64,000 nucleotides of DNA from Thermodesulfobacteriota bacterium (GTDB taxonomy: Bacteria; Desulfobacterota; Desulfobacteria; Desulfobacterales; SURF-7), in the NCBI GenBank assembly GCA_049320885.1, contig JBMORA010000001.1:402622-466621 (forward strand), written 5' to 3'. The translations under genes were made by a program, and so were the position numbers. Below the pieces are notes generated by a model. It was given only the letters and a program-made list of their open reading frames with translations. It was not told the origin of the DNA and ran no database searches. Below are positions 26,048 to 61,532 of this stretch, one piece after another (the stretch's first letter is position 1; each line of letters begins with the position of its first letter).

Positions 26048-28420
26048 TCATTCTTTCCGGTAAAACCCGTTCAGCAGCAAGGCAATCGATCCATCGGTCC
26101 CGCCGGCGATTTCATATTTCCGGCTCAAATCCGCGGAAACGAAAGCGATATAGGGTTGCCGCACTTTCAGACCGCCGACCTTTTCCAACCCGAGCCCCGC
26201 GAACAAACCGGAAAATTCAGCCGGTTCACACTGCATGGAATCGTGCACCACAATGGCGAAGGCGTGATAATCCTCCCGGGATCGCTCCACGACGGCCCGG
26301 AAGGGTTCGGCCGTCACAGGTTGATTCTGATCGGAGCAGGCGTCCACATTCGAAAGGATCGCCACCGTGGACGGGCCGGCGATGCCCACCAGCGAGACTC
26401 CCCGGGCAAGGACTTGTCGGGTATTTCCCGCCCGCAGATAGGAGTCGCCCTTATCGTAATGGCCCTGGGAGCGGATCCGGATCCTGCCGAGGGCATCCTT
26501 TCCCGGCAAAAAAACCAGCCGTTTGTGCTGATAGATTTTCAGGCGTCGGATGAGATGTTTCCGTCTTTCGTCTGCCAGGGCCGATGAAACCGCATGGCTC
26601 AACACTTCCGCCAGCTGTTCCCGCCCGATATACAGCTCGTCTTCAACGCCCGCGACCAGGGCGTTCGGATCGCCCGGTTTCCCCAGGAAAACACAATACG
26701 TCGTTTTTCCGCAACCAGGTTGAAACGCGTCGACCTCCTCCCCGGCATCCACCCATAGGACGGGCTCTTCCGGACTCCGTTCCAGAACACGGTGCGCCAG
26801 TTTCCGTTCACCGGAAAAGTCGAAGAGGACTTCCTTTATCCCCCCCTCCTCCGTCAGGATCAGCAGCACCGGCAGTTTCAACACCCGGTCCTCCAGGCGC
26901 AGATGTCCCCGCAGGGCATCGACCAGGCAGCCGGAGCTGATTTCCGGGTATTCCCAGAACGTTTCGATCTCCTCGGCCCATCCTTTCAGGGTCTCATCCG
27001 GGTCCAGCGCCTTTTCCACCAATGTCGGTTCGTTTCCCAGCAGATTGCGGCCGAGACCCAGAGCCGGCGTATCATACCCGAGCAGGCTCAGGATCGTGGG
27101 CGCGATATCCAGCAGCGATCCGGGCTTGGCGATCGACACCGGTTGAGGACGGTCGGGATCGATGACGATGAACAGGTTTTTCCTGTCTCCTTGAGACAAT
27201 TTATCCATGGCGCTGTTGTTCATGGCCAGGTGATCCGACCCGATGACGATCAGGGTGTCTTGCGCATACGGGGAGGCGAGGATCCGGTCCACCAGCTCGG
27301 TGATCAAAAAATCGGAGCAGCGCACGGCGTTGAGCATGGGGTTGCTTCCATCCCCATAGTCCAAGCCCCCGCACCGCCCGGATGGATGCCCGACAGGATG
27401 GTGGGTGTCGACGCTCAGGGTGACAAGTCCGAATTTCTCGCCGGACTCCGACAATTCCTCGAAACGCCGATAGACCCTTTCAAACAGGGAGTCGTCGAAG
27501 AGCCCCCAGTCGTTCACATAAGCCTCGTCCTCCAGGGTCGGAATCAATTCCCTGCTGCCGAAGGTCGCGTCGAAACCATGGGTGGCGTAAAATTTGCCTT
27601 TGCCGGCGAATTCCAAATCCGCGCCGGCCATGTAGGTCAGAAAATAACCGTGTTCCTTCAGGAGATCCCCGAGGCAGACCGCGCCGGAAAGGAACCGGTC
27701 CATGCCCGCCATGGAATTGCCGTCCGAGGGCGTGACCAGCGGGATTCCGCATTGGCCGGCAACCATGCCGGCGATGGTCCACCCCCCCCCGAAAACCGGA
27801 TCCAGATGCGTGAAAGACAAGCCCCGCTGTTCCAGACGCCGGAGACCGACGATGAGTCCCGGGAAAAGCGTTTCGTCAAAATAGGTGCGCTCCAGCGACT
27901 CTGCGTAAATATACACCAGGTTTTTGGTCCGGGACGGTTCCGCCCCGCTCCCCGGCTTTGCGTACATTGCGGAAAAAGGGACGTCGCTGGCCCTCACCGC
28001 AAGAGTCGAGATCAACTCGCTGCGGACGACGGGATGCGACACAAGGGCCAGCAGGAGAAATGCATACCCCAGCCGCCCGGCCGGGGTCCGCCGAACCTCC
28101 CGGGCCGGTGGAATTACCCGGAACACGACGCAGCATGCCGCCAGCGCCAGCAGAATCGAGGCCGACGCCACCACCAATGCGCCGCGGTATTCCCCGAAAC
28201 CGGCGCCTGCCAATCCATAGCGGAGATGGTACCAAACGGATTCATCGATGCCGTTTCCGGTGAAATAATCGGAAACGATATACAAACCGGAGGACAGCAC
28301 CAACAAAAATCCGCTGAAGCCGAAAAAGAGCCGCAGGATGCCCGTCCCTCCGCCCCTCCGGATCCAGAAGATGGCGGCGCCATAGAAAACAAGGGCCAGA
28401 CAGATCAACAAAAAGTCCAT
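26048..28420 (-). CDS. mdoB: Phosphoglycerol transferase I / LTA-synthase-family protein with a C-terminal extension
   Basis: SDYFTGNGI, NLVYIYAESLE, WTIAGMVAGQCGIPL, DTHHP, SDHLAM; N-terminal TM helices. Confidence 0.85.
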   Translation of the reverse strand: MDFLLICLALVFYGAAIFWIRRGGGTGILRLFFGFSGFLLVLSSGLYIVSDYFTGNGIDESVWYHLRYGLAGAGFGEYRGALVVASASILLALAACCVVFRVIPPAREVRRTPAGRLGYAFLLLALVSHPVVRSELISTLAVRASDVPFSAMYAKPGSGAEPSRTKNLVYIYAESLERTYFDETLFPGLIVGLRRLEQRGLSFTHLDPVFGGGWTIAGMVAGQCGIPLVTPSDGNSMAGMDRFLSGAVCLGDLLKEHGYFLTYMAGADLEFAGKGKFYATHGFDATFGSRELIPTLEDEAYVNDWGLFDDSLFERVYRRFEELSESGEKFGLVTLSVDTHHPVGHPSGRCGGLDYGDGSNPMLNAVRCSDFLITELVDRILASPYAQDTLIVIGSDHLAMNNSAMDKLSQGDRKNLFIVIDPDRPQPVSIAKPGSLLDIAPTILSLLGYDTPALGLGRNLLGNEPTLVEKALDPDETLKGWAEEIETFWEYPEISSGCLVDALRGHLRLEDRVLKLPVLLILTEEGGIKEVLFDFSGERKLAHRVLERSPEEPVLWVDAGEEVDAFQPGCGKTTYCVFLGKPGDPNALVAGVEDELYIGREQLAEVLSHAVSSALADERRKHLIRRLKIYQHKRLVFLPGKDALGRIRIRSQGHYDKGDSYLRAGNTRQVLARGVSLVGIAGPSTVAILSNVDACSDQNQPVTAEPFRAVVERSREDYHAFAIVVHDSMQCEPAEFSGLFAGLGLEKVGGLKVRQPYIAFVSADLSRKYEIAGGTDGSIALLLNGFYRKE

Positions 28421-28436
28421 GATTCGTGTATTCCCC

Positions 28437-29432
28437 TCACTTCAACCGCGGCCGGAGGCCCTTGTCAAAACTCCGCCAGACGGCATGGGCGGAAGCCGTC
28501 CGCCGTGTCTGGACGACCTGGCGCTTGCGCCACATGGCCGGAAGTCCCCGGATCGCATCCCGTTTGGCGTGCAGGATGACCCGACCCTGTCCGCGCAGAA
28601 TGAAACGCGCAACGGCGGCGGCATTCATCAGCAAAAAGGCCGGCAGCAGCAGCCAGAACAGCAGGCCCGGCATATTCTTCACATAACACCAGACCAGATT
28701 GCGATGGCCGTGGTAGACCGCGAAATCGCTTTTCTGGCCGCCGGTGGTCACCGAGCCCACATGACCGGCCACGGCGGCCGGAATCAGCCGGCATTCCCGG
28801 CCCATCAACCGCAGGCGGAACGCCAGATCCACATCTTCGAAATAGCAAAAAAAATCCTCGTCGAAAGCCCCGGCTTCCACGAGCACATCCCGCCGATAGA
28901 GGGCGGCGGCGGCGCAGGGTCCGAACACGTCCATTTCCGTCAAAGGGAAGGTATTCCTTCTGGCGCCGTGCCCCCGGCGCCAGGCGATTCCGCTGAAATG
29001 GAAAGCATCGCCGGCTCCGTCCAGCCGGTCCGGGTCCAGGGCTTTGACCAGGCAGCCGGCGAAAACCGGAATCGTGGGATAACGGCGGGCGGCGTCCAGA
29101 AGCCTGCCGAGCCAATCCGGCTTTAAAAAAGCGTCCGGATTCACCAGGGCGATCCAGTCACAATCCGAAAGATGCGGCAAGGCGATATTGTTGGCCTTTG
29201 CGAAGCCCACATTCCGGGGCAGAGCGATCCGTTGGAAATGACGCGGCCATACACCCTCCCATGCTCCGGCGGCAGCGTCATCGCCGTTGTCGACCACCAC
29301 AACCCGGGTGAAGGCGGCTTCCTGCTCGGCCATGGCTTTCAGGCATCGGCCCAGGTATTCTCCGGAATTCCAGTTGACCACCACCGCGCCAACGGAAAAA
29401 CCCGCGGGAGGTTTGCCGTCCATTATACGCAC
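28437..29432 (-). CDS. GT2 glycosyltransferase (WbbL/rhamnosyltransferase-like)
   Basis: VVVNWN, NVGFAKANN, VNPDA, FDEDFFCYFEDVDL. Confidence 0.9.
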   Translation of the reverse strand: MRIMDGKPPAGFSVGAVVVNWNSGEYLGRCLKAMAEQEAAFTRVVVVDNGDDAAAGAWEGVWPRHFQRIALPRNVGFAKANNIALPHLSDCDWIALVNPDAFLKPDWLGRLLDAARRYPTIPVFAGCLVKALDPDRLDGAGDAFHFSGIAWRRGHGARRNTFPLTEMDVFGPCAAAALYRRDVLVEAGAFDEDFFCYFEDVDLAFRLRLMGRECRLIPAAVAGHVGSVTTGGQKSDFAVYHGHRNLVWCYVKNMPGLLFWLLLPAFLLMNAAAVARFILRGQGRVILHAKRDAIRGLPAMWRKRQVVQTRRTASAHAVWRSFDKGLRPRLK

Positions 29433-30376
29433 CCGCCTTCATCACCCGCGGTCTTTTCCATCCGCAGCCAGTTCCGCATGCGCTCCAGCCCTTCCGGAAA
29501 CGTCGTCCGCGGCTTCCAGCCCAGCTCCATGCCGGCACGTTCCACGGCCAGAACGCTGGACGGTACATCAAACGGTCTGGCTTCCTTGAACACCCGCTCC
29601 GCCGCGATACTCGTCACCTGTTCCACAGCCTCCAGCACATCCAGAAGGCGCATGCCGGTGCCGGAGCCGATATTGAATATCCGTTCGGCGCCGCCGTATT
29701 CCAACGCCAGAATCATCGCCTCGACCACGTCGCCGATATACACATAGTCCCGGACAACGGAACCGTCACCCCAAATCTCCACTGGTTCCCCCCGCAGGAT
29801 TTTTCCCATGAAAACCGCCACGGCGCCCTGCCGGGCCAGTGTGCGCTGTCTCTCGCCGAAGGGATTGGAGAGGCGCAGCACGATATACGGCATGCCGTGA
29901 AGCCGCTGATACAAGGCGAGGTATTTCTCTATGGCCAATTTGGTGATTCCGTACGAGCAAATCGGATTGGTGGGATGCGCCTCATCCAGCGGCAGATACT
30001 GCGGGATACCGTATACCGTGCCCCCGGAAGAAATGAAAATAATCTTTTTGATGCCCGTCTGGACGGCCAGGCTCAACATCCTGACGGTCCCCGTCAGGTT
30101 CGTTTCCACATCAAACGCCGGATCGGCATTGGAGGATTTCGGTATGGTCGTCGAGACCAGATGATAACAAACGTCACATCCCGCCAAAGCTTCACCCATG
30201 TCGGACACACTGGTGAAATCGCCCTCCATATATTCGACACCTTCCGTCCGGGGCTCCGGTTCGAGGGACTCCAGATGGGGCCGGTCGAATATCCGGACGT
30301 CGAATCCTTTTTTCAGCAACCCATCCACCAGATGCGAACCGATAAATCCTTTCCCGCCCAAGACCAGGCACTTCAT
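29423..30376 (-). CDS. NAD-dependent epimerase/dehydratase
   Basis: GGKGFIGSH, SSGGTVYG, YGITK, WGDGSVVRDY. Confidence 0.92.
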   Translation of the reverse strand: MKCLVLGGKGFIGSHLVDGLLKKGFDVRIFDRPHLESLEPEPRTEGVEYMEGDFTSVSDMGEALAGCDVCYHLVSTTIPKSSNADPAFDVETNLTGTVRMLSLAVQTGIKKIIFISSGGTVYGIPQYLPLDEAHPTNPICSYGITKLAIEKYLALYQRLHGMPYIVLRLSNPFGERQRTLARQGAVAVFMGKILRGEPVEIWGDGSVVRDYVYIGDVVEAMILALEYGGAERIFNIGSGTGMRLLDVLEAVEQVTSIAAERVFKEARPFDVPSSVLAVERAGMELGWKPRTTFPEGLERMRNWLRMEKTAGDEGGCV

Positions 30377-30421
30377 TCGCTTGTCCCTTTCACTCCGTAT
30401 CGCGCTTAGCTCCCGCGGGTT

Positions 30422-31030
30422 CTATCCCATGGCCAGCCGCATCATCCGGTGACGGAGCGCCGCCTTCAGCCGGCTGTTGAAGTTCGGCCAGAAACCGTCA
30501 TCCGGCTTGCGGCAGACCAGCAGGGAATCATGCCACTGATCGCTGCCGTCATCATATCCCTCGTCCTGCCACTGGGTGGATGTCTCCAGCGTCTCCAGCC
30601 GGGCGAAATCCGCCATGGCCCGCATCCCGTCCGGATAAAAGCGCCAGCAATCGTCCGGATAGCGATGCTCCGGACCGCCGGAGGGCGCCAGAACGCAGCA
30701 GAGGCCGCCGGGCTTCAGCACCCTCGCGATTTCGAGGATCGTCAGCCAGAAATAGCGGATATGCTCGAACGCTTGGCCGGAAACCACCACATCCGCGGAA
30801 TTGCCGCGGATCTCGCGGAAAGCATACGGATTCCGCAGAACAATGTCCACGTTTTTCCCGGGCGCCATATCGATTCCCGCGTAACGCCAGCAGGAGCCGC
30901 TGAATATCGGCCGATAGCTGCCGTTGATGTCCTGGCTTCCCAGGTCATAAATCACCAGGGGAGCGCTTTTCCGGTCCGCCAGATACCGGTCCCGGAACCG
31001 GATCATTTTGTCATAGGAACTCTGATGCAT
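30422..31030 (-). CDS. SAM-dependent methyltransferase
   Basis: DLGSQDINGSYR, SGQAFEH, RVLKPGG, HRYPDDCWRF. Confidence 0.88.
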   Translation of the reverse strand: MHQSSYDKMIRFRDRYLADRKSAPLVIYDLGSQDINGSYRPIFSGSCWRYAGIDMAPGKNVDIVLRNPYAFREIRGNSADVVVSGQAFEHIRYFWLTILEIARVLKPGGLCCVLAPSGGPEHRYPDDCWRFYPDGMRAMADFARLETLETSTQWQDEGYDDGSDQWHDSLLVCRKPDDGFWPNFNSRLKAALRHRMMRLAMG

Positions 31031-31043
31031 CCGTTTTGCTCTT

Positions 31044-31811
31044 TCAGCTTCTGCGCAGCAACCACCCGTCCGGACAATAGGTCAGGTTGCGAATGACGTA
31101 TTCCTCGCCGTAAAGCGCCGCCGGCCTTTGAATGATGAAATTCGGGTTCAGGGCCGCAAACTCCCGGGCGGCGGCGGCCGGGTTGTCCTCGCGCCAGTGG
31201 GCGGCCCCTTCCGGCGTATCGGACAGAATCCGCATCACGCCGTCGGCGGCGACGATATACGAGCCGACGGAGACCAGCCCGGCATAGGCATTCAACTCCC
31301 GCAGCACATGGGCCCTGGAATGGTCGCTGTCCAGGAAAACAAAGGTCCGCTCGCCCGGCCGGATCAGATCGCGCACCTTTCGGACGGTGTCCGGCGCCGC
31401 CGAATCCGCCTGGATCAAGGTGATGGCCTCCCCGTATGGGCTTTCAGCCACGGCTTTCCGGACGGATTCCGGAATATGGACATCAATGGAAATCACCCGG
31501 CCCTTGCCCAGCAGACGGCACAAGGAGGCGAAAAAAATCGCGCTCCCCCCCTGGTTCACCCCGGTTTCCACAATGACATCCGGCTGAATCCGGAACAGGC
31601 TTTCCTGCAGCCGGATCATGTCGTCGGGCAATTGCCAGATCGGGAAGCCTAGCCAGGACAAGGAGCGCCAGTTGGCCGCATTCCACTGCTGCTTGATCCA
31701 CAATCCGGTCATCTTTTCCAGGCCTTCCCTGGAAAACAGGTCGAGCGTTTCAACAACGCCGTCTTCTTCCACGACCATCGAGTTGGCCGCTGTATCAATA
31801 CGGATTTTCAT
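31044..31811 (-). CDS. CmcI (cephalosporin hydroxylase) family, putative sugar O-methyltransferase
   Basis: WLGFPIWQLPDD, PDVIVETGV..GGS, LDSDHS..HVLREL, NP; ATGA overlap with wzt. Confidence 0.88.
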   Translation of the reverse strand: MKIRIDTAANSMVVEEDGVVETLDLFSREGLEKMTGLWIKQQWNAANWRSLSWLGFPIWQLPDDMIRLQESLFRIQPDVIVETGVNQGGSAIFFASLCRLLGKGRVISIDVHIPESVRKAVAESPYGEAITLIQADSAAPDTVRKVRDLIRPGERTFVFLDSDHSRAHVLRELNAYAGLVSVGSYIVAADGVMRILSDTPEGAAHWREDNPAAAAREFAALNPNFIIQRPAALYGEEYVIRNLTYCPDGWLLRRS

Positions 31812-33169
31812 ACCAGATGAATCCTGATGTCGTTCATGGGCACGCCCATCAGCCCGAAACAGACGGAACTGGAATGTACCCGGAAAGCCAGGGCCTCGTG
31901 CAGCCAGTGGTGCTGGACATGCTCCTGCTGGGTGCCCTCGGCCGCCGAGGCGGCCACCGTGTAGTCCCCCACCGGCATAACCGGCATGCGAAAGGAGAAG
32001 CTGGCTTGAAATTTCAAGCCGGACGGCACGTGCAGCGGTGAATTCATATGGGCGAGATAGGTATTGTCGGCAAACAGGACCTGACCGAGCCTGTCCTGCA
32101 CCATGAATCCGACAATCGGGTGAAACAGGTCGCAGTTGGCCCGGCACTGAATGACCAGTGTCAGCATTTCCCCCCCCACCACCCATGCCAGCTGACGTCC
32201 CTCCCCGTCCTGGAGCCGGACGTCCGTCACGACAGCGCCGCCCTTGCCGAACTGGGCCTTGTCCGGTTTAAAGGCGAACAATTCGATGTCGTTCCGGTGG
32301 GGCGTCGCATTGATGAAGTCCTGCCGCATATCCCGGGGTGGTTCATCCGCTGGGGCAGCTTTGTTATCCCGCACCGCCGGAACAGCGGCGATGCTCTCTC
32401 CCTGGCGTGCCTCATAACACGCCGTCAGATATTTTGCCACGATATCTTTGGGTTCCCCCCGCCCCCGGACAACCCCCTTATCCAGCCAGAAAGCGGTCCG
32501 GCACAGGCCGGTCACGGCGCCGGTATCGTGGCTGACCAGGATGATGGTCCCCTGTTCCATGAAACGCCGCAGAAAACGCATGCACTTCTGGACAAAAAAC
32601 GCATCCCCGACCGCCAGGGCTTCATCGATGACCAGGATATCGGCGTCCACATGGGCCATCACGGCGAACGCCAGCCGGACATACATGCCGCTGGAGTAGG
32701 TTTTGACCGGCCGTTCGATGAATTCACCGATATCGGCAAAAGCCGCGATATCGTCGAAACGCGCGTCGATCTCCGTTTTCGTGAGCCCCAGCACGGCCGC
32801 GTTCATGTAGACATTTTCCCGGCCGGTGAATTCCGGGTTGAACCCGGAGCCGAGTTCCAGCAGGGCCGCCACTCTGCCGCGAGTCTCCACCGTTCCGGAA
32901 GTGGGCGACAAGGTCCCGCAGATGATCTGCAGCAGGGTCGATTTGCCGGAGCCGTTGCGGCCGATGATGCCCGTCGTTTCGCCGCGCCGGATTTCGAAAG
33001 AGACGTCCCGGAGGGCCCAGAAATCACGATAATACCGGCTTTGCTTCCACCCCGCCATGCGCTGGAGACGGGGTACGACGAACTGCTTGAGCCGGTCCCG
33101 GGGAGTATCGTATATCTGATATCCCTTGCTGAGATTTTCGATGCGGATGGCGATCTGTTCAGATAACAT
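31808..33169 (-). CDS. wzt: Glycan ABC exporter ATP-binding protein with C-terminal Wzt_C domain
   Basis: GRNGSGKST, YSSGMYVRLAF, IDEALAVGD; C-terminal extension. Confidence 0.95.
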   Translation of the reverse strand: MLSEQIAIRIENLSKGYQIYDTPRDRLKQFVVPRLQRMAGWKQSRYYRDFWALRDVSFEIRRGETTGIIGRNGSGKSTLLQIICGTLSPTSGTVETRGRVAALLELGSGFNPEFTGRENVYMNAAVLGLTKTEIDARFDDIAAFADIGEFIERPVKTYSSGMYVRLAFAVMAHVDADILVIDEALAVGDAFFVQKCMRFLRRFMEQGTIILVSHDTGAVTGLCRTAFWLDKGVVRGRGEPKDIVAKYLTACYEARQGESIAAVPAVRDNKAAPADEPPRDMRQDFINATPHRNDIELFAFKPDKAQFGKGGAVVTDVRLQDGEGRQLAWVVGGEMLTLVIQCRANCDLFHPIVGFMVQDRLGQVLFADNTYLAHMNSPLHVPSGLKFQASFSFRMPVMPVGDYTVAASAAEGTQQEHVQHHWLHEALAFRVHSSSVCFGLMGVPMNDIRIHLV

Positions 33170-34010
33170 CGGCAAACCCCTTGCGGGTTTTCTGAAACCA
33201 GGCGAAACCCAGCCAGGCAACCACCAGGGCCGCGGCGGAATAAACCAGAAGTCCTGGCCAATCCGGCAACCGTCCCCAGACCAGAACATCGCGGGACTGT
33301 TCGATGATGAACGCCAGGGGATTGGCCATCATCCAGGGACGATAGGCTTCCGGCAAGGCGGTTATGGGGAAAAAAACCGGGGAGACGAACAGCAGCACGG
33401 CGGTGACGATGCCGATGAACTGACCCACGTCACGGATATACACGCCGAGGGAGGCCAGGCCCCAGGAAACGCCGGCGGAAACCGCCACCAGGGGCAGCAG
33501 GATCAGGGGGAACAGGATGACGGTCCAGTGCAGAAAGCCATTGAACAGAAAAATGGCCATCAGCAGCACCGCCAGGCTGACCAGGCACTGGAAAAGCGCC
33601 GCGGCCACGGACACCACCGGCAGGATTTCCAGGGGGAAAACGACTTTCTTGACATAGTTCGCATTGGCCAGGATGACCCCCGGGGCCCGGTTGGCGGCTT
33701 CCGCCAGCAGGTTGTAAACAATCAGTCCGGCAAACAGCATCACGGCGAACTGGGTTCTGGTCTCCTGTTCACCCATTCCCCAGCGGGCCTTGAACACCAC
33801 CGAAAAGACGAAAGTATACACCGCCAGCATGAGCAGGGGATTGGAGAAGGACCAGGCCAGGCCGAGAATCGAGCCCCGATACCGGCCGATGACCTCGCGC
33901 CGGGTCATCTGAAAAATCAGGTCGCGGCTGGTCCACAGGCAGGCCAGCATGGCCTGGATGGATGCGGGATGGGCTCTGTGAGGATTCATGGATGTTGCCA
34001 CCGCCTTCAA
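33159..34010 (-). CDS. wzm: Glycan ABC exporter permease
   Basis: RYRGSILGLAWS..NPL, NANYVKKVVFPLE, RDV, FADVI. Alternative start at ATG 33989. Confidence 0.95.
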   Translation of the reverse strand: MKAVATSMNPHRAHPASIQAMLACLWTSRDLIFQMTRREVIGRYRGSILGLAWSFSNPLLMLAVYTFVFSVVFKARWGMGEQETRTQFAVMLFAGLIVYNLLAEAANRAPGVILANANYVKKVVFPLEILPVVSVAAALFQCLVSLAVLLMAIFLFNGFLHWTVILFPLILLPLVAVSAGVSWGLASLGVYIRDVGQFIGIVTAVLLFVSPVFFPITALPEAYRPWMMANPLAFIIEQSRDVLVWGRLPDWPGLLVYSAAALVVAWLGFAWFQKTRKGFADVI

Positions 34011-34972
34011 TCCCTTAAATTGATCGCCCCGCAGCCGGCGATGTCCATCTCCAGACCGAGCTCCCGGGCATGACGGCGGGCCAGGGTCAGGCAGGATTCC
34101 ATTTCGCCGGTGAGCTGCGGCTGGAAGGCATCCACGTCGAACACCACATGATGCACACCCAGCCTGCCGGAGCGTTCCAGAAACGTGACGATATCACTTG
34201 GAATCGTGTTTTCCGGGAGCAGAATATACTTGGTTACCAGGGTTTTGCCGTGTTCCGCGTAACCGGCCAGGTTTTCCCAGACAGCTTCATATCGATCGCT
34301 TTGTTTCAGGTGGCGATAGGTCTCCCGGCTGCCGGCATCCACCGAGCAGATAATCGTCAGATTCGGCTGGCTGGCTTCGGCCATGGTCCGGTTGAAGATG
34401 GTTGCGTTGGTGGTCAGGGTCACCCAGGGGCCGTATTCCAGCAACATCAGCAGCAGGTCCTCGAAACCCGGCATGAGGGTCGGCTCCCCCCCGCCCCAGA
34501 AGATCTCCGCCTGGCGGGAAAGAAAACCGCTCTCCATGAATTGGCGGAAGACCGGCCCCAGGTCCAGGGGATGGTGCCCGAACTGAATGTCACGGTCATC
34601 ATTCCACCAGGCCGCGGCAATGCGCTCCTTTTGCAGATAACAATAGGCGCAGCGCAGGTTGCAACGGGTGAAATGACTGAGATTGATTTTCCGCAGGGTG
34701 AATTCGGGGCTGGTTTCATCGGCCGGACGAATTGTCAGCAAGGGGCATTCCCGGCATTGTTCCGCCTTGCCGGCCGCAAGGGCTTCCCGCAGCGCGCGCT
34801 TCGCCTGCTGGAAGCGCCCCACATCAAACGGACCGCCGTCATACGGGAACAGGAGCGGCCACCCGCAGGTTTCATGATGCACTACGCAACAGGCGTGCGC
34901 CGACCGGGGGGCGAAGGCGAGCCCGCCCTCGATCCATTCACAGCTCAAGCGTTCATGCATATCGCCCCGCAT
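34007..34972 (-). CDS. Radical SAM protein with N-terminal Cys motifs
   Basis: CNLRCAYC, GGGEPTL, TTNA, SVDAG; N-terminal CEW..CC..CRECP. Start uncertain. Confidence 0.85.
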   Translation of the reverse strand: MRGDMHERLSCEWIEGGLAFAPRSAHACCVVHHETCGWPLLFPYDGGPFDVGRFQQAKRALREALAAGKAEQCRECPLLTIRPADETSPEFTLRKINLSHFTRCNLRCAYCYLQKERIAAAWWNDDRDIQFGHHPLDLGPVFRQFMESGFLSRQAEIFWGGGEPTLMPGFEDLLLMLLEYGPWVTLTTNATIFNRTMAEASQPNLTIICSVDAGSRETYRHLKQSDRYEAVWENLAGYAEHGKTLVTKYILLPENTIPSDIVTFLERSGRLGVHHVVFDVDAFQPQLTGEMESCLTLARRHARELGLEMDIAGCGAINLRD

Positions 34973-35100
34973 TTCCGTTCCCCATTCCCGGTCCCTTCCT
35001 GTCTTTTCAAACCCTTTTGTTTCTATCCACGGCAATTCTTGAGTCCGGCTATTACCAAAAAATGAGGAAAATGCAAGCTTTTCAAGCACCCCGCCGGCCG

Positions 35101-35862
35101 TCACTCCGCAGTCGGCGCGCCCTCTTTTTTCCGGGATTCATACCAGGACACCATTTTCTGGGCCTCGCTGTTTCCTTTAACAGCCGCCTCTTGATACAAT
35201 TCCAGGGCCTTGTCATGGTCCTGCCGAAACACTCCCACTCCCTGCTGGTACAGGGACGCCAGGTGCACCATGGCCTCCGCATCCCCCTGGGCCGCTGCCT
35301 TGGCATACCATTCCCCGGCCATGACCGGATCCCGCGCCAGGCCGCCCGCGCCGTTATAATACATCACCCCCAGCGCGTCCTGCCCCCGGGGGTTTCCCTG
35401 GGCCGCCGATTTCTGGAAATACCCGAGGGCCTTCTCCGGGTCGGCCTGGATACCCGGCCCGCCCAGCAGATGCACCACACCGGCGAAATATTGTCCCACC
35501 GCCGTCCCCAATTCAGCGGATTTTTCAAACAATTCAAGCGCTTTCTTATCATCCTTGGCCAGCCCGGCAAGCCCCTGGTAATACATCACGCCCAGCCGAT
35601 TCATGGCAAACGCATTGCCCTTCTCCGCAGCCAGCGCATACCATTTTCGAGCGGTTGTCAAATCCCTGGCCAGCCCCCGGTCGCCTTCCTCATAGCATCT
35701 TCCCAGCTCAAACGCAGCCGGAGCGATCCCCGCCGCCGCCATTTTCCTCAGTTGCGCCATATCCACCGGGGCGGAACCTTCCCCGGCCAGACCCGGGGGA
35801 ACGCCCACCGCCAAAAACCACATCAGGACGGACATCAGGCTCCAGAACATATTTTTTTTCAT
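35101..35862 (-). CDS. Secreted Sel1-repeat protein
   Basis: Signal peptide; repeated LGVMYYxG...A..W/YF.KAA.QG units. Confidence 0.9.
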   Translation of the reverse strand: MKKNMFWSLMSVLMWFLAVGVPPGLAGEGSAPVDMAQLRKMAAAGIAPAAFELGRCYEEGDRGLARDLTTARKWYALAAEKGNAFAMNRLGVMYYQGLAGLAKDDKKALELFEKSAELGTAVGQYFAGVVHLLGGPGIQADPEKALGYFQKSAAQGNPRGQDALGVMYYNGAGGLARDPVMAGEWYAKAAAQGDAEAMVHLASLYQQGVGVFRQDHDKALELYQEAAVKGNSEAQKMVSWYESRKKEGAPTAE

Positions 35863-35994: not shown

Positions 35995-37047
35995 ATGCGT
36001 TACCACTCGTATTGCATGTATATTACGCTTTTCTTTCTACTCTGCGGCCTTGCCCCGGCAAGGTCGAGCGCCGATGCGCAAACCGCAAAGGAATTGTTCG
36101 ATGAAGCCGGCCGCCTTGCGGAAAAAGGCAACATGGAGCAGGCGCAGCCGTTATTTGATAAAGCGATCCAGCTGGATCCGTCCATGGCCGGCTTGGCCAA
36201 TTTCCGGCTGGGAACAGCCTTTGCCCAGCAACAAAATTTCACGGAAGCTGTGAAGTATTACGAAAAAGCGCTGGAGTCAAAGAAAAACGAGCCCATTATT
36301 TATATGAACATGGCCAATGCCTATCTCGCTCTGCATCGACCCGACAGGGCCGTCGATTGCTATAAACGGATAACGGAGTTGGATCCCAAAGCGGTTTGGG
36401 CTTATCACAATCTGGGTTCCCTCTATCTGCAGATGAAAGCATATCCTTCGGCCGTAGAAGCATTCAACAAGGTCATCGAAATCGATGCCAACACGTTCCG
36501 CACCGTGTACGAACAAATTGGCTATGCCTATCAGATGATGAGAAACTTCGACCAGGCCATCCTCGCCTACCAGAAGGCGATCAAGGTGAACCCCAAATCG
36601 TTCGCGGCCCATTACAATCTGGGCAAGTGCTACTTCGACCTCCGGGAAGCGGACAATGCCATCAAGTCGTATACCACGGCCATCGAGCTGGATCCGAAAA
36701 GCGCCGAGGCCATCACCAACCTGGGGCATGCATATTACTATAAATATACCATCTCGTTCGCCCGCAGCGACCTCGATCTGGCGTCAGCCGCCTTCAATCG
36801 CGCCCTGATGATGAAAAAGGACCTGGGTCAGGCCCTGTTCGGTCTTTCCCTGGTAAACCGGGAACGGGGGGAATATCAGACGGCCCTGGATCTCGCGGAG
36901 CGGGCCAAGCAATCCGGTCTCAAAGTGAGTTCAAAATATATCGAGAATCTGCAGGCCCGTATCGAAAAGAAACCCTTGGCGGATGATCCGGCGGCAAAGC
37001 CGGCCATCCCGCCCGACACCAAGGAAGACACCACCGGCAAGAGCTGA
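35995..37047 (+). CDS. Secreted TPR-repeat protein
   Basis: GGAGGA RBS; signal peptide; multiple TPRs (AYHNLG, AHYNLG, KAIxLDP). Confidence 0.9.
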   Translation: MRYHSYCMYITLFFLLCGLAPARSSADAQTAKELFDEAGRLAEKGNMEQAQPLFDKAIQLDPSMAGLANFRLGTAFAQQQNFTEAVKYYEKALESKKNEPIIYMNMANAYLALHRPDRAVDCYKRITELDPKAVWAYHNLGSLYLQMKAYPSAVEAFNKVIEIDANTFRTVYEQIGYAYQMMRNFDQAILAYQKAIKVNPKSFAAHYNLGKCYFDLREADNAIKSYTTAIELDPKSAEAITNLGHAYYYKYTISFARSDLDLASAAFNRALMMKKDLGQALFGLSLVNRERGEYQTALDLAERAKQSGLKVSSKYIENLQARIEKKPLADDPAAKPAIPPDTKEDTTGKS

Positions 37048-37133
37048 GCCATCGCTTTGCCATCCCCGTTTGTTGGCCACGGATTCCGCCGGGCCGCGCT
37101 TTCCCGGGCTCGGCGCGCACAGCCATCCGGCGC

Positions 37134-37177
37134 TCCTTCATTCCGGCTGCGGCGCAGCGGAAAGCCGGAACGAAGGA
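37134..37177. terminator. Hairpin between convergent genes (likely bidirectional terminator)
   Basis: TCCTTCATTCCGGCT ... AGCCGGAACGAAGGA inverted repeat. Confidence 0.55.
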
Positions 37178-37183
37178 AATCCA

Positions 37184-37651
37184 TTAAAAGGGCGACCCGG
37201 ACTTGGGCGGCGCCAAATCCGCCACCCACCTCCCGTCTTCCTGAAGCCAATTTTCCTGAAGGATTGCCCCGGGTATCAGAAAACCCATCTGCTTGATATC
37301 GAACCGGACGCTCACCTTGGCCCTGGTTTTATCCTCTGAGAACGTAATCCCGGCGATTTCGAATTTCTCAATCCGTGAGCGGCATTTGGACCGGTTGTCC
37401 TCCAGGGTAACCTGCCGGCGGTAGAGAGCTGAAGCGTTTTCGTAAATGACGTCGCAATCCCCGTCCACTTTGGCCTGCCAGACCACCGCCACCCGTTCCC
37501 GCAAATCCTGTTCGGACACTTTCGGAAACAGATGCGCGCAACCGAGAAAAGCGAAAACCAGCGCCCACGCCGCGATGGCCATCCCCATCGCAGCAAATCG
37601 GGCGCCGATGCCACCAAGCCCGTGATCGGATCTCTTTTTTTCCATCGCCAC
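37184..37651 (-). CDS. Putative lipoprotein (NTF2-like small domain)
   Basis: Hydrophobic signal ending in lipobox FLGC; LRERV..W.AK and W...DG.W pattern. Confidence 0.7.
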   Translation of the reverse strand: MAMEKKRSDHGLGGIGARFAAMGMAIAAWALVFAFLGCAHLFPKVSEQDLRERVAVVWQAKVDGDCDVIYENASALYRRQVTLEDNRSKCRSRIEKFEIAGITFSEDKTRAKVSVRFDIKQMGFLIPGAILQENWLQEDGRWVADLAPPKSGSPF

Positions 37652-37662
37652 TTCCTTCGTCT

Positions 37663-38625
37663 TTACCGGTTCCCCGATGTCCTTCTTTTGGCCAGGTTGC
37701 GTTGTGTCTCGAATTCTTTTTCCAGGGCATCAAATTCCGGATCCGATGCCACGGACGGTGTCAATTCCTTTAAAAAGCTTTCCTGCCGCTCGATTTTCCC
37801 GTTCCGGTCCAGCCATATCCGGATGACCCCCACATGTTTCCCGCCCATGCTGGATTTCAGCAGAATCTTGCCATGGACCACCGCCGGCTCGAAATCATAA
37901 TAATACTGGTGTCCCACGATGATCACATCGATGCCGTCCACCTCATTCGCCAGTCGCACGCTTTCGTCCCAGCCGGCATGGGACAGCAGGACAACGAGGC
38001 CGGTTTCCTTTTTCAGGGCCGGCAGGACGGCCTTCAGGGATGAAACCATATCCCGCACTTCGATTCCATCCGCACCTGTCCGGGCCGGGTCCGTGAAACC
38101 GGCGGAAACGACCCCCACCACGCCGATCTTGACGCCGTTGACGGTTTTCGTATGGTAGGGTTTCCAGGCGTATTCCTTGCCCACAAAGGTATTCGAGCCG
38201 ATGAAACCCGGCTGAATCGAGTCCCGGAAACGCTGCAAGAAAGGCAGGCCATACCCCAGCTCACCGTCCGCGACATTCATGGCGTCATATCCCAACATCT
38301 TCAGGGCTCTTGCGGTAAACTCGGCCCTCAGTTCCGCCGGTTCTTCCTGGCTCCAGAAAAAATCCCCGGCATCCACCAGCAGGATGTCGCCGTATTCCTT
38401 CCGCAGCTCCGCAACATAGCCGGCCCGCCGGGCCAGCCCGCCAGGGGCGTTCGTTGCTCAGCCAAAGCATTTGATATGCCCCTGGCCGTCGCTGGTGTAG
38501 GCGATCACCACATCCGGCGGGGCGGCCTGTTTGCTTTCCGCGCCCTGGCCCGGGCCCACGGATCCGAGGCCCACCGCCAGAACCAGAACAACGCTCCATA
38601 ACCGACAGGAAAAGAAACACCTCAT
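37663..38625 (-). CDS. UshA-like (5'-nucleotidase N-domain) secreted selenoprotein, Sec56 in a CxxU motif
   Basis: ORFs 38458-38652 and 37663-38376 are in frame across a single TGA (38460-38458): YTSDGQGHIKCFG-U-ATNAPGGLARRA...LLVDAGD. GAGGAGAGG RBS; signal peptide; SECIS-like hairpin downstream. Confidence 0.88.
38411..38457 (-). promoter_or_regulatory. Candidate bacterial SECIS element
   Basis: Directly 3' of the UGA: outer GCAAC/GUUGC stem and inner GCUGGCCC-[GGC]-GGGCCGGC stem; the apical loop starts with G, 28 nt after the UGA. Confidence 0.72.
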
Positions 38626-38676
38626 GAATGACCTCTCCTCGTAACCTGACACTCAACCAATGAACCATATTCCATC

Positions 38677-38711
38677 ATTCGTAATTCGAAATTCCTAATT
38701 CGTAATTCCGA
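38677..38711. repeat. Tandem heptamer array (ATTCGTA consensus, 5 units)
   Basis: ATTCGTA ATTCGAA ATTCCTA ATTCGTA ATTCCGA. Confidence 0.85.
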
Positions 38712-38718
38712 TTTGCTT

Positions 38719-41184
38719 TTACCGGTACAGTTCCGCTCCGCTGAGCAACCCGAGGCTCCCGTCACCATAGAGGAAAAGTCCCATGATGCCGTTGCCGTCG
38801 GCGGTGATCCGCACCCAGGGCAGCTCCGGCAAGCGGGTTTCCGGGAAAACCTCGCCGAGGTTGAAAACGGCCTTGGTAAAAGGCGCAACGGTCAAAACCA
38901 CCTCCTCCCCCGGCACCATTTCACCGTTCCGGCCCATGGGAGTCAGGGTCACCGCAACACCCATCGGCCCCGGGTTGTACAGCGCGACTCCGGTCCACCA
39001 ATCGCCGTCCCGGGCGATGTGGGGAATGGCCAGTTGATTCACGCCCTGATCCAGGGCCATGAGTTCAAAAGCCGCGCTGCTGACGGCGGTCTTATAGGTG
39101 AAATAACCGGCGACGGGGGTCTGGGCGGTGATCTGCAGGGCTCCCTGGGCCAGCTCCTCCTCCGTCATCGCCGGAAACAGGTCGACGATGGACCGGGTTG
39201 TTTTTTCATAGGGCATCAACTCCAGCGGAACCGGTTCGCCGCCCTGGCCATTCACCATCCGGCATTCAACGGCATTGACGGCGCCGCCCGGATTGATCAA
39301 GGTCATTTCCGTACGCCAGACGCCGGAAACCGCCACATGGGGAATGATCATCCGGGTATCGGTCCGGGTCAGGGCAAACAGGCTGTCCGGACCGCCGGAA
39401 TCGTTTTTGAGCCAGCGGGAAAAGCCGTCCACGCCGGCAGCGGTGTCCGGGACAGAGGTCTGCACGTCGATCCAGCCGTTTTCAATGGCTTTGTAAAACG
39501 GATTGGCGCTGGGCGAGTACCGCAGGACGGAACCGGCCGGAAGATGGATGCCCGCCTGGCGCTCCGGTATTCCCTGGGCGCTGTACAGCAGGCAATTCAA
39601 CTCCACGGCCTGGGCGAAGCGGTTGACCAGCCCCCAGGTGACGACCTTGCTGGTGGAAAAAAGTCCGGAAGTATCGGGTATCATCCATCGTCCGGCGCCG
39701 GATCCGCCGGGCTGGCCGAAACCGGCCAGGCTTTGCCGGCCGATGCCGTCCAGGGAAATCATCGCCGCCGGGTCGTCGCATAACAGTTTCAGGGCCTTGA
39801 TCGAGGCTTTTTCGTGCAGACGCATGGGCAGGCTTTCCGCCAGCCAGACATCCTTTTGCCGGGGGCCGATTTCGTAAGGCCCCTTGAGGGTGGCCACAGG
39901 CCGGGAGGCGCTGTCATAGGCGACGATCTGGACATCGGTGAGCGGGAGATCGAAGGTATTGGTGATGGCGACCCCGTTCCAGGCCGATCCCTTTTGAAGA
40001 TCGGGAATCCATTGTTCGTTGGCCTTGGACTGGTCGAAAACGATGCGGTAAATTCCCCCTCCGCCGTAGTTGTCGCGGCGGACGTTCAAGCGATAGGGTG
40101 GATTTTCCGCTGCAAGGGTCAGGGTGGCCGTATCATTGAGTTCCGCCTGCCATACCATCCGGCCGGCCGCATCCAGGAGGTCAATCCGGATGCCGTCCTC
40201 CAGGGTATCGATCTTCTCGAACCCAAACGCCAGCCGGTCGCCGGAACCGGCGTTGATGGTATAGGCATCCTCGTTCAGCAATATCAGGTTGTAATTGCCC
40301 GGCGTCAACTGCACGGCTCCCGTGTTTTCCAGAAAATCATCCTTGTGCAGGGAAATGGACCGGATCAGCTCATAGTTGAGAAAGGGATTGGTGGCCTGGG
40401 GCGCCAGCGGATAAAATACCGAGCGGGGCGGGCTCCCGGCGCTGGTGCCGGTCCATTCGCCGCCGGTGATTTCATTCCGGGCGTTGAGATAGAGAAGATA
40501 GGTGTAAATCTTTGTCTTGACCACCGTACCCTGGATATCCGGATGCACGTTGTCGTCGGCGTACCAGATCTGGCAACGCACCTCCTTGCCGGCACTGGTG
40601 TTGGTGAGCTGCATGTCATACTGGAAAATGGGGTAAAACCAGGCTTCCGTGGCCGAACCGAGATTGGCCACAAAGGCCCGGCGGTGAACCTTGATATAGT
40701 TCAACAGCCAGGCGTGAAAAATCTCCGGGTTGTACCGCACCGATTCGCTGATGGTCAGGTCGCTGCCATGGCAGGCGGAGAGCAGGCCTTTTTTGTCCCC
40801 CACCCGGAAAATGATATTATTGTAGGAAGAGGGGTAAAAAACGATGTTTTCATAGGCTGCGGCCGCGGCCCAGGCATGGCATTGGCCGTTCCAGCTTTCC
40901 GCGTCCGGGTCGTAATGGTTGGCCAGTTCCCACTGGGTGGTGGCGCCCGGATAGGTTCCGGTGGTCAGCAGCTCGAACTTCTCGGTGGGCGCCGGATGGC
41001 CGAAATTGGCATAGCCGTTGGCCAGGGCGCCGCTTCTGGTGGACCACCAATAGCCGGACCAGGGCCGAAAATAGGTTTCCGCCGCATCCGTGCCGGCCAG
41101 GGCCTGGAACGGCGGAGCCAACAAAACCGCCCACAACACGGAGGTCATGACAAGGGCGGCTGCATGGAAGGTCTTGGTTTTCAT
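38719..41184 (-). CDS. Secreted protein: N-terminal GP42/elicitor-type transglutaminase-like domain plus four C-terminal beta-rich repeats
   Basis: Signal peptide; PWSGYWW, SWNGQCHAWAAAA, FRVGDKKGLL, NPEIFH, AWFYPIFQY, YTYLL..N...EITGGEW. Confidence 0.78.
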   Translation of the reverse strand: MKTKTFHAAALVMTSVLWAVLLAPPFQALAGTDAAETYFRPWSGYWWSTRSGALANGYANFGHPAPTEKFELLTTGTYPGATTQWELANHYDPDAESWNGQCHAWAAAAAYENIVFYPSSYNNIIFRVGDKKGLLSACHGSDLTISESVRYNPEIFHAWLLNYIKVHRRAFVANLGSATEAWFYPIFQYDMQLTNTSAGKEVRCQIWYADDNVHPDIQGTVVKTKIYTYLLYLNARNEITGGEWTGTSAGSPPRSVFYPLAPQATNPFLNYELIRSISLHKDDFLENTGAVQLTPGNYNLILLNEDAYTINAGSGDRLAFGFEKIDTLEDGIRIDLLDAAGRMVWQAELNDTATLTLAAENPPYRLNVRRDNYGGGGIYRIVFDQSKANEQWIPDLQKGSAWNGVAITNTFDLPLTDVQIVAYDSASRPVATLKGPYEIGPRQKDVWLAESLPMRLHEKASIKALKLLCDDPAAMISLDGIGRQSLAGFGQPGGSGAGRWMIPDTSGLFSTSKVVTWGLVNRFAQAVELNCLLYSAQGIPERQAGIHLPAGSVLRYSPSANPFYKAIENGWIDVQTSVPDTAAGVDGFSRWLKNDSGGPDSLFALTRTDTRMIIPHVAVSGVWRTEMTLINPGGAVNAVECRMVNGQGGEPVPLELMPYEKTTRSIVDLFPAMTEEELAQGALQITAQTPVAGYFTYKTAVSSAAFELMALDQGVNQLAIPHIARDGDWWTGVALYNPGPMGVAVTLTPMGRNGEMVPGEEVVLTVAPFTKAVFNLGEVFPETRLPELPWVRITADGNGIMGLFLYGDGSLGLLSGAELYR

Positions 41185-41207
41185 GGGTAAGAAAATCGTT
41201 TCGGAGA

Positions 41208-41855
41208 TCAATGGGTTTCCCGCCAGGATCGACGATCGCCGGTGTCTTCGTAGAGCCACCACCGGTCGCCCTCGGCCCATAGCTGACGGACGCGGATGGA
41301 TTTTCCATAATGAACGGAAACCAGTTTCAGGACACGGCCCGTGTGGACATGGGCCTGGTCCGGCGGAATCATTTCCCGGGCCACGGCTTCCGCCAGGGTG
41401 ATGGGGCGGGTCTCTTTGTCGAGGTGATAGGCAAACCCGGTGTCGCCGACCAGTTTGCGACTGACGGCTTGGGTCTGGCCGCTGTCTCCGGGGTTCAGAT
41501 CGTCCAGGGGAAACGGATAGCCCCAGGAAAGGGTGATGGTTTCTTCCGCCCGGGTGTCATGGGTGTAGATGCCGGACAGCCGGTCTTCGATTCTCATCAG
41601 GCGGCCGGTAGCCGCATATTGGAGCATCAGGTCGGGCTGGGCCTGATCGTTGCGGAAAACGGCGTAGGAACCGGATTCCCGGGGAACAAGGCGCCATTTG
41701 ATTTCATTGTCCCAGGCCTGGGTAACGGGATTGAGGTAGCGGCTGCGGATGACGATCCCGGCCGGCTCCGCCGGAGCCGTGGCCGCGAACAGTGCAGCGA
41801 GTGCCGATGTCACGGCGAAAACGATGCTAATGATCTTAAATGGTTTCATTTTCAC
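41208..41855 (-). CDS. Secreted hypothetical protein
   Basis: 215-aa ORF with a signal peptide, colinear within the operon. Confidence 0.7.
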   Translation of the reverse strand: MKMKPFKIISIVFAVTSALAALFAATAPAEPAGIVIRSRYLNPVTQAWDNEIKWRLVPRESGSYAVFRNDQAQPDLMLQYAATGRLMRIEDRLSGIYTHDTRAEETITLSWGYPFPLDDLNPGDSGQTQAVSRKLVGDTGFAYHLDKETRPITLAEAVAREMIPPDQAHVHTGRVLKLVSVHYGKSIRVRQLWAEGDRWWLYEDTGDRRSWRETH

Positions 41856-61497: not shown

Positions 61498-61532
61498 ATT
61501 CGTAATTCCCAATTCGTAATTCGTAATTGCGT
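61498..61532. repeat. Tandem heptamer array (ATTCGTA consensus, 5 units)
   Basis: ATTCGTA ATTCCCA ATTCGTA ATTCGTA ATTGCGT. Confidence 0.85.

Follow-up and report, generated by a model that had tools for sequence, protein, structure and literature searches.

One question raised by a 64,000-nucleotide (nt) stretch of DNA from a Thermodesulfobacteriota bacterium of the order Desulfobacterales (contig JBMORA010000001.1, positions 402,622 to 466,621 of the forward strand; hereafter the window) is how to read a single minus-strand frame at 38625-37663 that extends over 320 codons and contains one in-frame TGA, at 38460-38458 (codon 56). Under genetic code table 11 the gene is read as a 64-amino acid (aa) open reading frame (ORF) ended by the TGA and a second ORF of 237 aa, and in public protein collections it is present as two pieces, P0162 (55 aa) and P0002 (237 aa), the kind of annotation splitting that was anticipated in an earlier note on this DNA, which had proposed a hidden UshA-like selenoprotein. 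Judging from comparisons of sequence, the region is very probably an intact, mis-annotated gene for an exported UshA-like selenoprotein, in which UGA56 would be recoded as selenocysteine (Sec) under the guidance of a downstream hairpin. UGA56 is supported as a Sec codon by a column of Cys or Sec in relatives, by a genome that encodes the Sec machinery, and by a hairpin of the selenocysteine insertion sequence (SECIS) type.

The whole gene (37663-38625, minus strand) runs from an ATG at 38625 through 320 codons to a TAA stop at 37665-37663, and translation of TGA as U yields 320 residues with U56 as the single non-standard step. A ribosome-binding site, GAGGAGAGG, can be read from the sequence at 38632-38640, 6 nt 5' of the ATG, and residues 1 to about 30 (38536-38625) form a putative N-terminal signal peptide, seen in the structural model as a hydrophobic helix at residues 4-21 followed by a low-confidence linker; hydrophobic leaders also open the homologs. 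The Sec codon (38458-38460) sits in the sequence K-C-F-G-U-A-T-N-A-P-G-G-L-A-R-R-A, five residues ahead of G-G-L-A-R-R-A and three residues after Cys53 (codon at 38467-38469), giving the motif C-F-G-U. Cys occurs only at positions 3, 7, and 53 in addition to U56, and there is no CxxCH motif. As the earlier note had observed, motifs continue across the TGA, with T-S-D-G-Q-G and D-A-G-D on opposite sides of U56. A genetic code in which TGA is a sense codon was ruled out, because TGA ends 9 of the 15 ORFs of the window. Furthermore, a 265-nt contig from an independent metagenome run of another study (X3) spans 38368-38632 and carries the identical TGA with 0 differences, so that the TGA is not an assembly error, and the likely source run has a depth of 21 over the region of the TGA.

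Evidence that codon 56 specifies Sec comes from relatives. When 201 genomes of the same order were searched in all six frames, 24 homologous places were located in 17 genomes; 17 of these places contain exactly one TGA and 7 contain Cys and no TGA. In the extracted homologs the TGA is found at the same place, directly before G-G-[LMI]-A-R-R-A, which is also where Cys stands in the homologs with no TGA. Similarly, in a 70-row alignment the column corresponding to position 56 is Cys or Sec in all 62 ingroup rows that reach it, and the remaining four ingroup rows are database entries that start past the column, the pattern to be expected where gene callers truncate Sec genes. The genome also encodes a complete set of Sec machinery, consisting of SelA (519.6 bits), SelB (371.7 bits), SelD (376.6 bits), and a canonical tRNA-Sec with anticodon UCA (75.4 bits; selC). 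The selD gene (G000:C1:345002-345928, locus L022) has an in-frame TGA of its own, and SelD of this genome is itself a selenoprotein. Thus, the checks that the earlier note had proposed, on the identity of position 56 in homologs, on selA, selB, selC, and selD, and on a sequencing error, all came out in favour of Sec.

In bacterial SECIS elements the loop usually follows the UGA at a distance of about 16-37 nt and has a G among its first positions. The claimed hairpin with a G-initiated loop 28 nt downstream of the TGA was recovered by RNAfold as a 9-bp stem at 38418-38438 (minus strand) with a GGC loop (38429-38427), positioned on the codons of G-L-A-R-R-A-G-Y, with a distance from UGA to loop of 28 nt. 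The minimum free energy structure, calculated for the window sequence only, predicts an additional outer helix (GCAAC/GUUGC, 38411-38457) that encloses the hairpin and begins directly after the UGA. An Rfam scan of 38250-38650 with E up to 10 returned chance-level matches only and no SECIS family. The stem occupies the same L-A-R-R-A codons in 23 Sec-type relatives, with 88.9% of the cells paired, and codon choice is largely uniform, with GCC for the first Ala in 23 of 23, CGG for the first Arg in 21 of 23, and GCC for the second Ala in 18 of 23; of the four Cys forms available as DNA, none has CGG and one has GCC at those codons. Two pairs display both-sided, compensatory changes (GC/AU/UA/GU), and the covariation score was attained by 1 of 500 shuffles, figures that are inflated by relatedness. 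For relatives of lower GC content, the fraction of synonymous resamples that fold as well as the natural sequence is 0.002 (L031), 0.000 (L042), 0.002 (L030), and 0.028 (L047), and a fraction of 0.05 or less is found in 4 of 16 Sec forms versus 0 of 7 Cys forms. A second Sec group, with the motif U-G-G-x-x-x-G-G-L-A-R, has a shifted hairpin with a GGUCUG/U loop.

UshA-like selenoproteins as such have been catalogued since 2008, when a table listed "COG0737 UshA-like, CxU" with 76 Sec sequences (PMC2398784); the same entry appears in a table of PMC9312934, and the NCBIfam models NF041198 (CxU) and NF049981 (CxxU) are both tabulated in PMC13188914. In the literature searched on UshA-like or COG0737 selenoproteins, supplements aside, such catalogue tables were all that was found, with no functional study among them. 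The best NCBIfam match of the window's protein is NF041198 (UshA_like_PCGU), at 144.9 bits versus a cut-off of 275 and over profile positions 14-280 of 519, and the score against NF049981 (UshA-like (seleno)protein family 2) is 47.9 bits versus a cut-off of 140, so that by whole-protein score the protein belongs to neither family. Members of NF041198 above the cut-off are found in 61 of 401 genomes of the phylum, nearly all with one TGA, and in 0 of the 201 genomes sampled from this order. True members are about 520-550 aa long; in them a domain with the E-P-C-G-U motif is followed by a coiled coil and then, at the C-terminus, by a domain that carries four CxxCH haem motifs. Members of family 2 above the cut-off are rarer, with 3 in the 401 phylum genomes and 0 in the 201 order genomes; two of them read P-C-P-[S/T]-U (L060 and L061) and one P-V-P-T-U, with no Cys (L062).

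A quick IQ-TREE analysis of the 70 rows, rooted on classical 5'-nucleotidases and run without an approximately unbiased (AU) test of a single origin of CxxU, positions the window gene in a 7-row clade A with P0003, P0103, L026, P0104, L031, and P0107 (Shimodaira-Hasegawa-like approximate likelihood ratio test, SH-aLRT, 94). Clade A is sister to clade B, which comprises 13 rows that all have Cys (P-x-G-C-C) and takes in the genome's own paralog at G000:C9:351976-352809 (SH-aLRT of A and B together, 99). The next branch, clade C, holds short E-P-C-G-U/C forms (96), and NF041198 and family 2 group elsewhere (SH-aLRT 94), with the branches of family 2 being long and their placement unsure. The window gene is thus a new side branch of an already catalogued group, reached by neither of the curated NCBIfam models.

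Genome and metagenome scans added further clade-A-like genes, assigned by motif and 40-49% identity and standing outside the tree, that read C-T-G-U (twice), C-K-G-U, C-S-G-U, C-D-G-U, and, in one case without Cys, P-R-G-U. Among the clade-A-like genes, Cys at position -3 in a C-x-G-U motif is seen in 8 of the 9 distinct sequences that were read from DNA. Across the family, the partner Cys is found at -2 (CxC/CxU), at -3 (CxxC/CxxU), or at +1 (CC), or is absent. Other CxxU forms in the same order read C-H-S-U and C-F-R-U, and the CxxU of the window gene stands apart in the tree from these and from the forms of family 2. With regard to the earlier suggestion that CxxU departs from the CxU typical of UshA-like selenoproteins, the spacing here is indeed CxxU, but it is not new for the fold, as CxxU is already listed for NF049981 in the table of PMC13188914. 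The accompanying likeness to thioredoxin-type redox motifs holds for the spacing and goes no further than that, because the partner Cys shifts across the family.

The other end of the protein also varies among relatives. Most short homologs (L026, L027, L030, L032, and others) end in a K/E-rich stretch followed by a motif resembling L-S-P-E-E-F-x-x-x-M-K, which may be a docking motif, and the counterpart of the K/E-rich stretch in NF041198 leads into the tetrahaem domain. The L-S-P-E-E-F-like tail is lost in the window's protein and in its nearest kin (P0003, P0103, P0106, and L077).

What kind of protein carries the Sec residue is apparent from its fold. Pfam reports only a sub-threshold match to Metallophos (16.4 bits versus a cut-off of 21.5). 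An AlphaFold2 (AF2) model built from a 67-sequence alignment has a mean per-residue confidence (pLDDT) of 92.5 and a pTM of 0.88, with a lower value of about 78 in the Sec loop, and shows a metallophosphoesterase fold. Foldseek and a PDB profile search both retrieve the N-terminal domains of 5'-nucleotidases (3ivd, CD73, and UshA) as best matches, with Foldseek giving E 4e-22 and TMq 0.77 for 3ivd_A. In the model the Sec loop follows directly on the motif-I strand, between strand 1 and helix 1. The protein stops after the N-terminal domain, and the C-terminal 5'-nucleotidase domain PF02872 was not found by Pfam. At the seven columns that form the classical site, which read D-H-D-N-H-H-H in the four classical 5'-nucleotidases of the alignment, the window's protein reads D-Q-D-D-G-H-H, with four kept and three changed: the motif-I His is replaced by Q, and the Asn and His of G-N-H-E by D and G, respectively. 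Among ingroup rows the motif-I His is kept in only 4 of 62 and the Asn in 0 of 66. Furthermore, several Sec lineages have lost almost all seven ligands and kept Sec (family 2, the U-GG group, part of NF041198, and L064-L067), and within clade A one member (L026) reads D-H-S-E-G-N-N at these columns with Sec in place. Because these lineages lose the classical ligands but keep Sec, the conserved function is tied to Cys/Sec and not to the old dinuclear site, making this a clear case of an enzyme fold whose original catalytic site was lost while an invariant Cys/Sec took over.

Three distant homologs (P0004, P0005, and P0007) are fusions to thioredoxin/AhpC-TSA domains. Together with the multihaem domains of other relatives, these thioredoxin-like fusions point to electron transfer. 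Given the decayed site and the fusions in relatives, the protein can be read as a redox protein and not as a nucleotidase. According to the mechanism that we propose, UGA56 would be decoded as Sec by SelB and tRNA-Sec, guided by the hairpin on the G-L-A-R-R-A codons 28 nt downstream, and the protein would be exported to the periplasm. Its functional centre would be the invariant Sec/Cys of the loop that joins strand 1 to helix 1, paired here with Cys53, and there is about an even chance that Sec56 and Cys53 cycle between a selenol/thiol and a selenenylsulfide form in a periplasmic redox protein. Redox chemistry would then take place on a scaffold with a decayed phosphoesterase site, and would be linked functionally to the products of the two neighbouring genes described below.

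A number of observations weigh against this reading of the gene and its product. Taken alone, the window's hairpin does not differ significantly from shuffled sequence in what is a GC-rich gene (z-score -0.22); 235 of 2000 synonymous-codon resamples of the gene fold equally well or better, and 257 of 2000 hold a hairpin of at least 9 bp. A similar hairpin is present in a GC-rich Cys form (L028), for which reason the A-R-R-A codons may have been a pre-adaptation. The hairpin is accordingly weak evidence in the window gene alone, and is significant across relatives. The P-R-G-U form noted above (L098) has no Cys near Sec, meaning that the Cys-Sec couple is not obligatory. In addition, D46, D88, D120, H216, and H239 are retained and could still bind metal, and a second tRNA with anticodon UCA, paired with a second SelB-like gene, could deliver Cys instead of Sec.

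The retained residues are central to the rival explanation that fares best, which is possible, if rather doubtful: a metal-centred enzyme in which Sec56 and Cys53 replace the lost His/Asn ligands in a site remodelled with D46, D88, D120, H216, and H239. Its substrate would be a small sulfur compound or oxyanion, and Sec would serve as metal ligand or nucleophile. In favour of such an enzyme, nearly all of the window's protein, clade B, and clade C keep D-x-D-[D/E]-x-H-H, a pattern that takes in the four columns of the second classical metal site, SoxB is the second-best NCBIfam match (79.2 bits), and the Sec loop comes directly after the motif-I strand. Such an enzyme is nevertheless difficult to reconcile with the retention of Sec where nearly all ligands are lost, as in family 2, the U-GGxxxGG group, L064-L067, and L026.

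A different outcome of translation is envisaged by a second rival, that the second tRNA(UCA) and its SelB-like factor insert Cys facultatively at UGA56, at least when selenium is scarce. This tRNA is encoded at G000:C1:315730-315817 (loci L007/L015), about 87 kb upstream on the same contig, and when read by eye shows an acceptor stem of 8 bp, with A1:U72 as the first pair and U73 as the discriminator. The second SelB-like ORF (269 bits) begins 48 nt downstream of it, the pair spanning G000:C1:315730-317766, and the layout fits the arrangement of selC* tRNA-Cys and selB* described for Desulfobacterales in PMC5389517. A second copy of cysS is also present in the genome (C1:238753-240120), but it lies 77 kb from the second tRNA and is not adjacent. 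The canonical Sec system is complete, and Cys insertion would supplement the best explanation more than compete with it; overall, we regard it as unlikely.

The two remaining explanations are barely credible. That the region is a pseudogene or two genes, with the TGA a true stop arising by nonsense mutation or assembly error, agrees with the two pieces P0162 and P0002 produced by gene callers, but not with a TGA at the same column in 17 of the 24 homologous places and in further named loci of metagenome-assembled genomes, with conserved sequence on both sides of it, with the identical independent contig, or with a 237-aa piece that by itself would have neither signal peptide nor motif I. An ordinary periplasmic 5'-nucleotidase or phosphodiesterase that merely contains Sec is suggested by the fold and by homology at the family level, but is at odds with the replacement of the motif-I His and of the G-N-H-E Asn and His by Q, D, and G, with the missing C-terminal domain and a length of 320 aa compared to about 500-550 aa in the matched chains, and with a Metallophos score below the cut-off.

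The gene belongs to a conserved cassette of three genes on the minus strand. Upstream, at 38719-41280, lies a gene for a secreted protein of 853 aa, whose N-terminal part resembles transglutaminase elicitors (a weak match to Pfam PF16683, 46.7 bits) and whose C-terminal part is DUF5719-like, a description that also draws on Atlas rows for cluster and structure. Its homolog adjoins the UshA-like gene in 11 order-level loci and in seven loci of the genome collection (L076, L077, L078, L079, L083, L084, and L085), with identity of up to 50%. Downstream, at 37184-37651, a gene encodes a 155-aa lipoprotein with an NTF2-like fold (AF2 pLDDT 87.1; Foldseek matches NTF2-like domains), for which Pfam and NCBIfam gave no match; its true start is probably the ATG at 37645, and 13 of 15 homologs carry the lipobox Cys. 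The lipoprotein homolog adjoins in 13 order-level loci and in L076-L079, the clade-A loci in which both cassette neighbours flank the gene, and the neighbours are absent from the clade-B loci L003, L027, and L028. Moreover, a Cys-form UshA-like protein of 453 aa (L036, G032:C836) has a C-terminal domain homologous to the 155-aa lipoprotein, a fusion that lends Rosetta-stone support to a functional link between the UshA-like and lipoprotein genes.

One speculative extension of this arrangement, which we consider quite improbable, is that the C-x-G-U clade marks an extracytoplasmic three-gene module, in which the pseudo-phosphoesterase scaffold would now serve as a selenol redox partner that maintains or resets the catalytic Cys of the transglutaminase-like neighbour, with the UGA possibly switched between Sec and Cys by selenium supply through the second tRNA(UCA)/SelB pair.

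The non-coding DNA and the genes around the cassette have features of their own. In surroundings that are otherwise GC-rich, AT-rich heptad repeats, GAATTNN, occur four to five times in the intergenic region at 38677-38710, shortly 5' of the ribosome-binding site of the UshA-like gene, and again at 61504-61522; three copies of the pattern GAATTNNGAATTNNGAATT are present in the window versus 0 expected, and it is absent from the other 103 fetched loci. The run could be a site where a regulator binds, or a small repeat. A promoter and terminator scan of 36900-41600 was uninformative, with terminator-like sites at chance level. Downstream and on the same strand, at 26048-35104, lies a cell-surface polysaccharide block made up of genes for a protein with a sulfatase domain, a family-2 glycosyltransferase, an epimerase, two methyltransferases, an ABC transporter pair of the Wzt/Wzm type, and a radical SAM protein, which suggests an envelope-related neighbourhood.

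The significance of the locus lies partly in how it is stored, since the gene and its whole clade are held in public protein sets as fragments only. With such fragments, and with neither of the curated NCBIfam models reaching the clade, the selenoproteins of this order of sulfate reducers are undercounted. The thioredoxin-like and tetrahaem fusions and the conserved cassette are testable leads to the function of the family. The gain is incremental and introduces no new principle; what is new is an unmodelled branch, a shifted Cys-Sec motif, and a conserved cassette.

Comparison with known systems sets the window's protein apart from each of them by a different combination of traits. With the classical 5'-nucleotidases (E. 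coli UshA, human CD73, and a bacterial 5'-nucleotidase; PDB 2ush, 4h2i, and 3ivd) it shares the N-terminal fold (TMq 0.71-0.77), but it has no C-terminal substrate-binding domain, three of the seven site columns are changed, and Sec is present. In the alignment, CD73 and venom enzymes have Cys residues in the same loop, before G-G-V-A-R, which presumably form a structural disulfide. Members of NF049981 resemble the window's protein in being short, in having no cytochrome domain, and in CxxU spacing with five residues from Sec to G-G, but they are rare, have lost nearly all classical ligands, and group with NF041198 in the tree. The likeness to NF041198 itself extends to fold, to a Sec column before G-G-L-A-R, to the type of hairpin on the same codons, to predicted export, and to phylum; unlike members of that family, the window's protein is 320 aa long, reads K-C-F-G-U and not E-P-C-G-U, has neither coiled-coil linker nor tetrahaem domain, and belongs to a separate clade. 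Clade B is linked to the window gene by sister position, 30-37% identity, length class, and the D-x-D-[D/E]-x-H-H pattern, and differs from it in having two adjacent Cys residues, no TGA, and L/M-A-R-R-A codons that do not follow the hairpin pattern.

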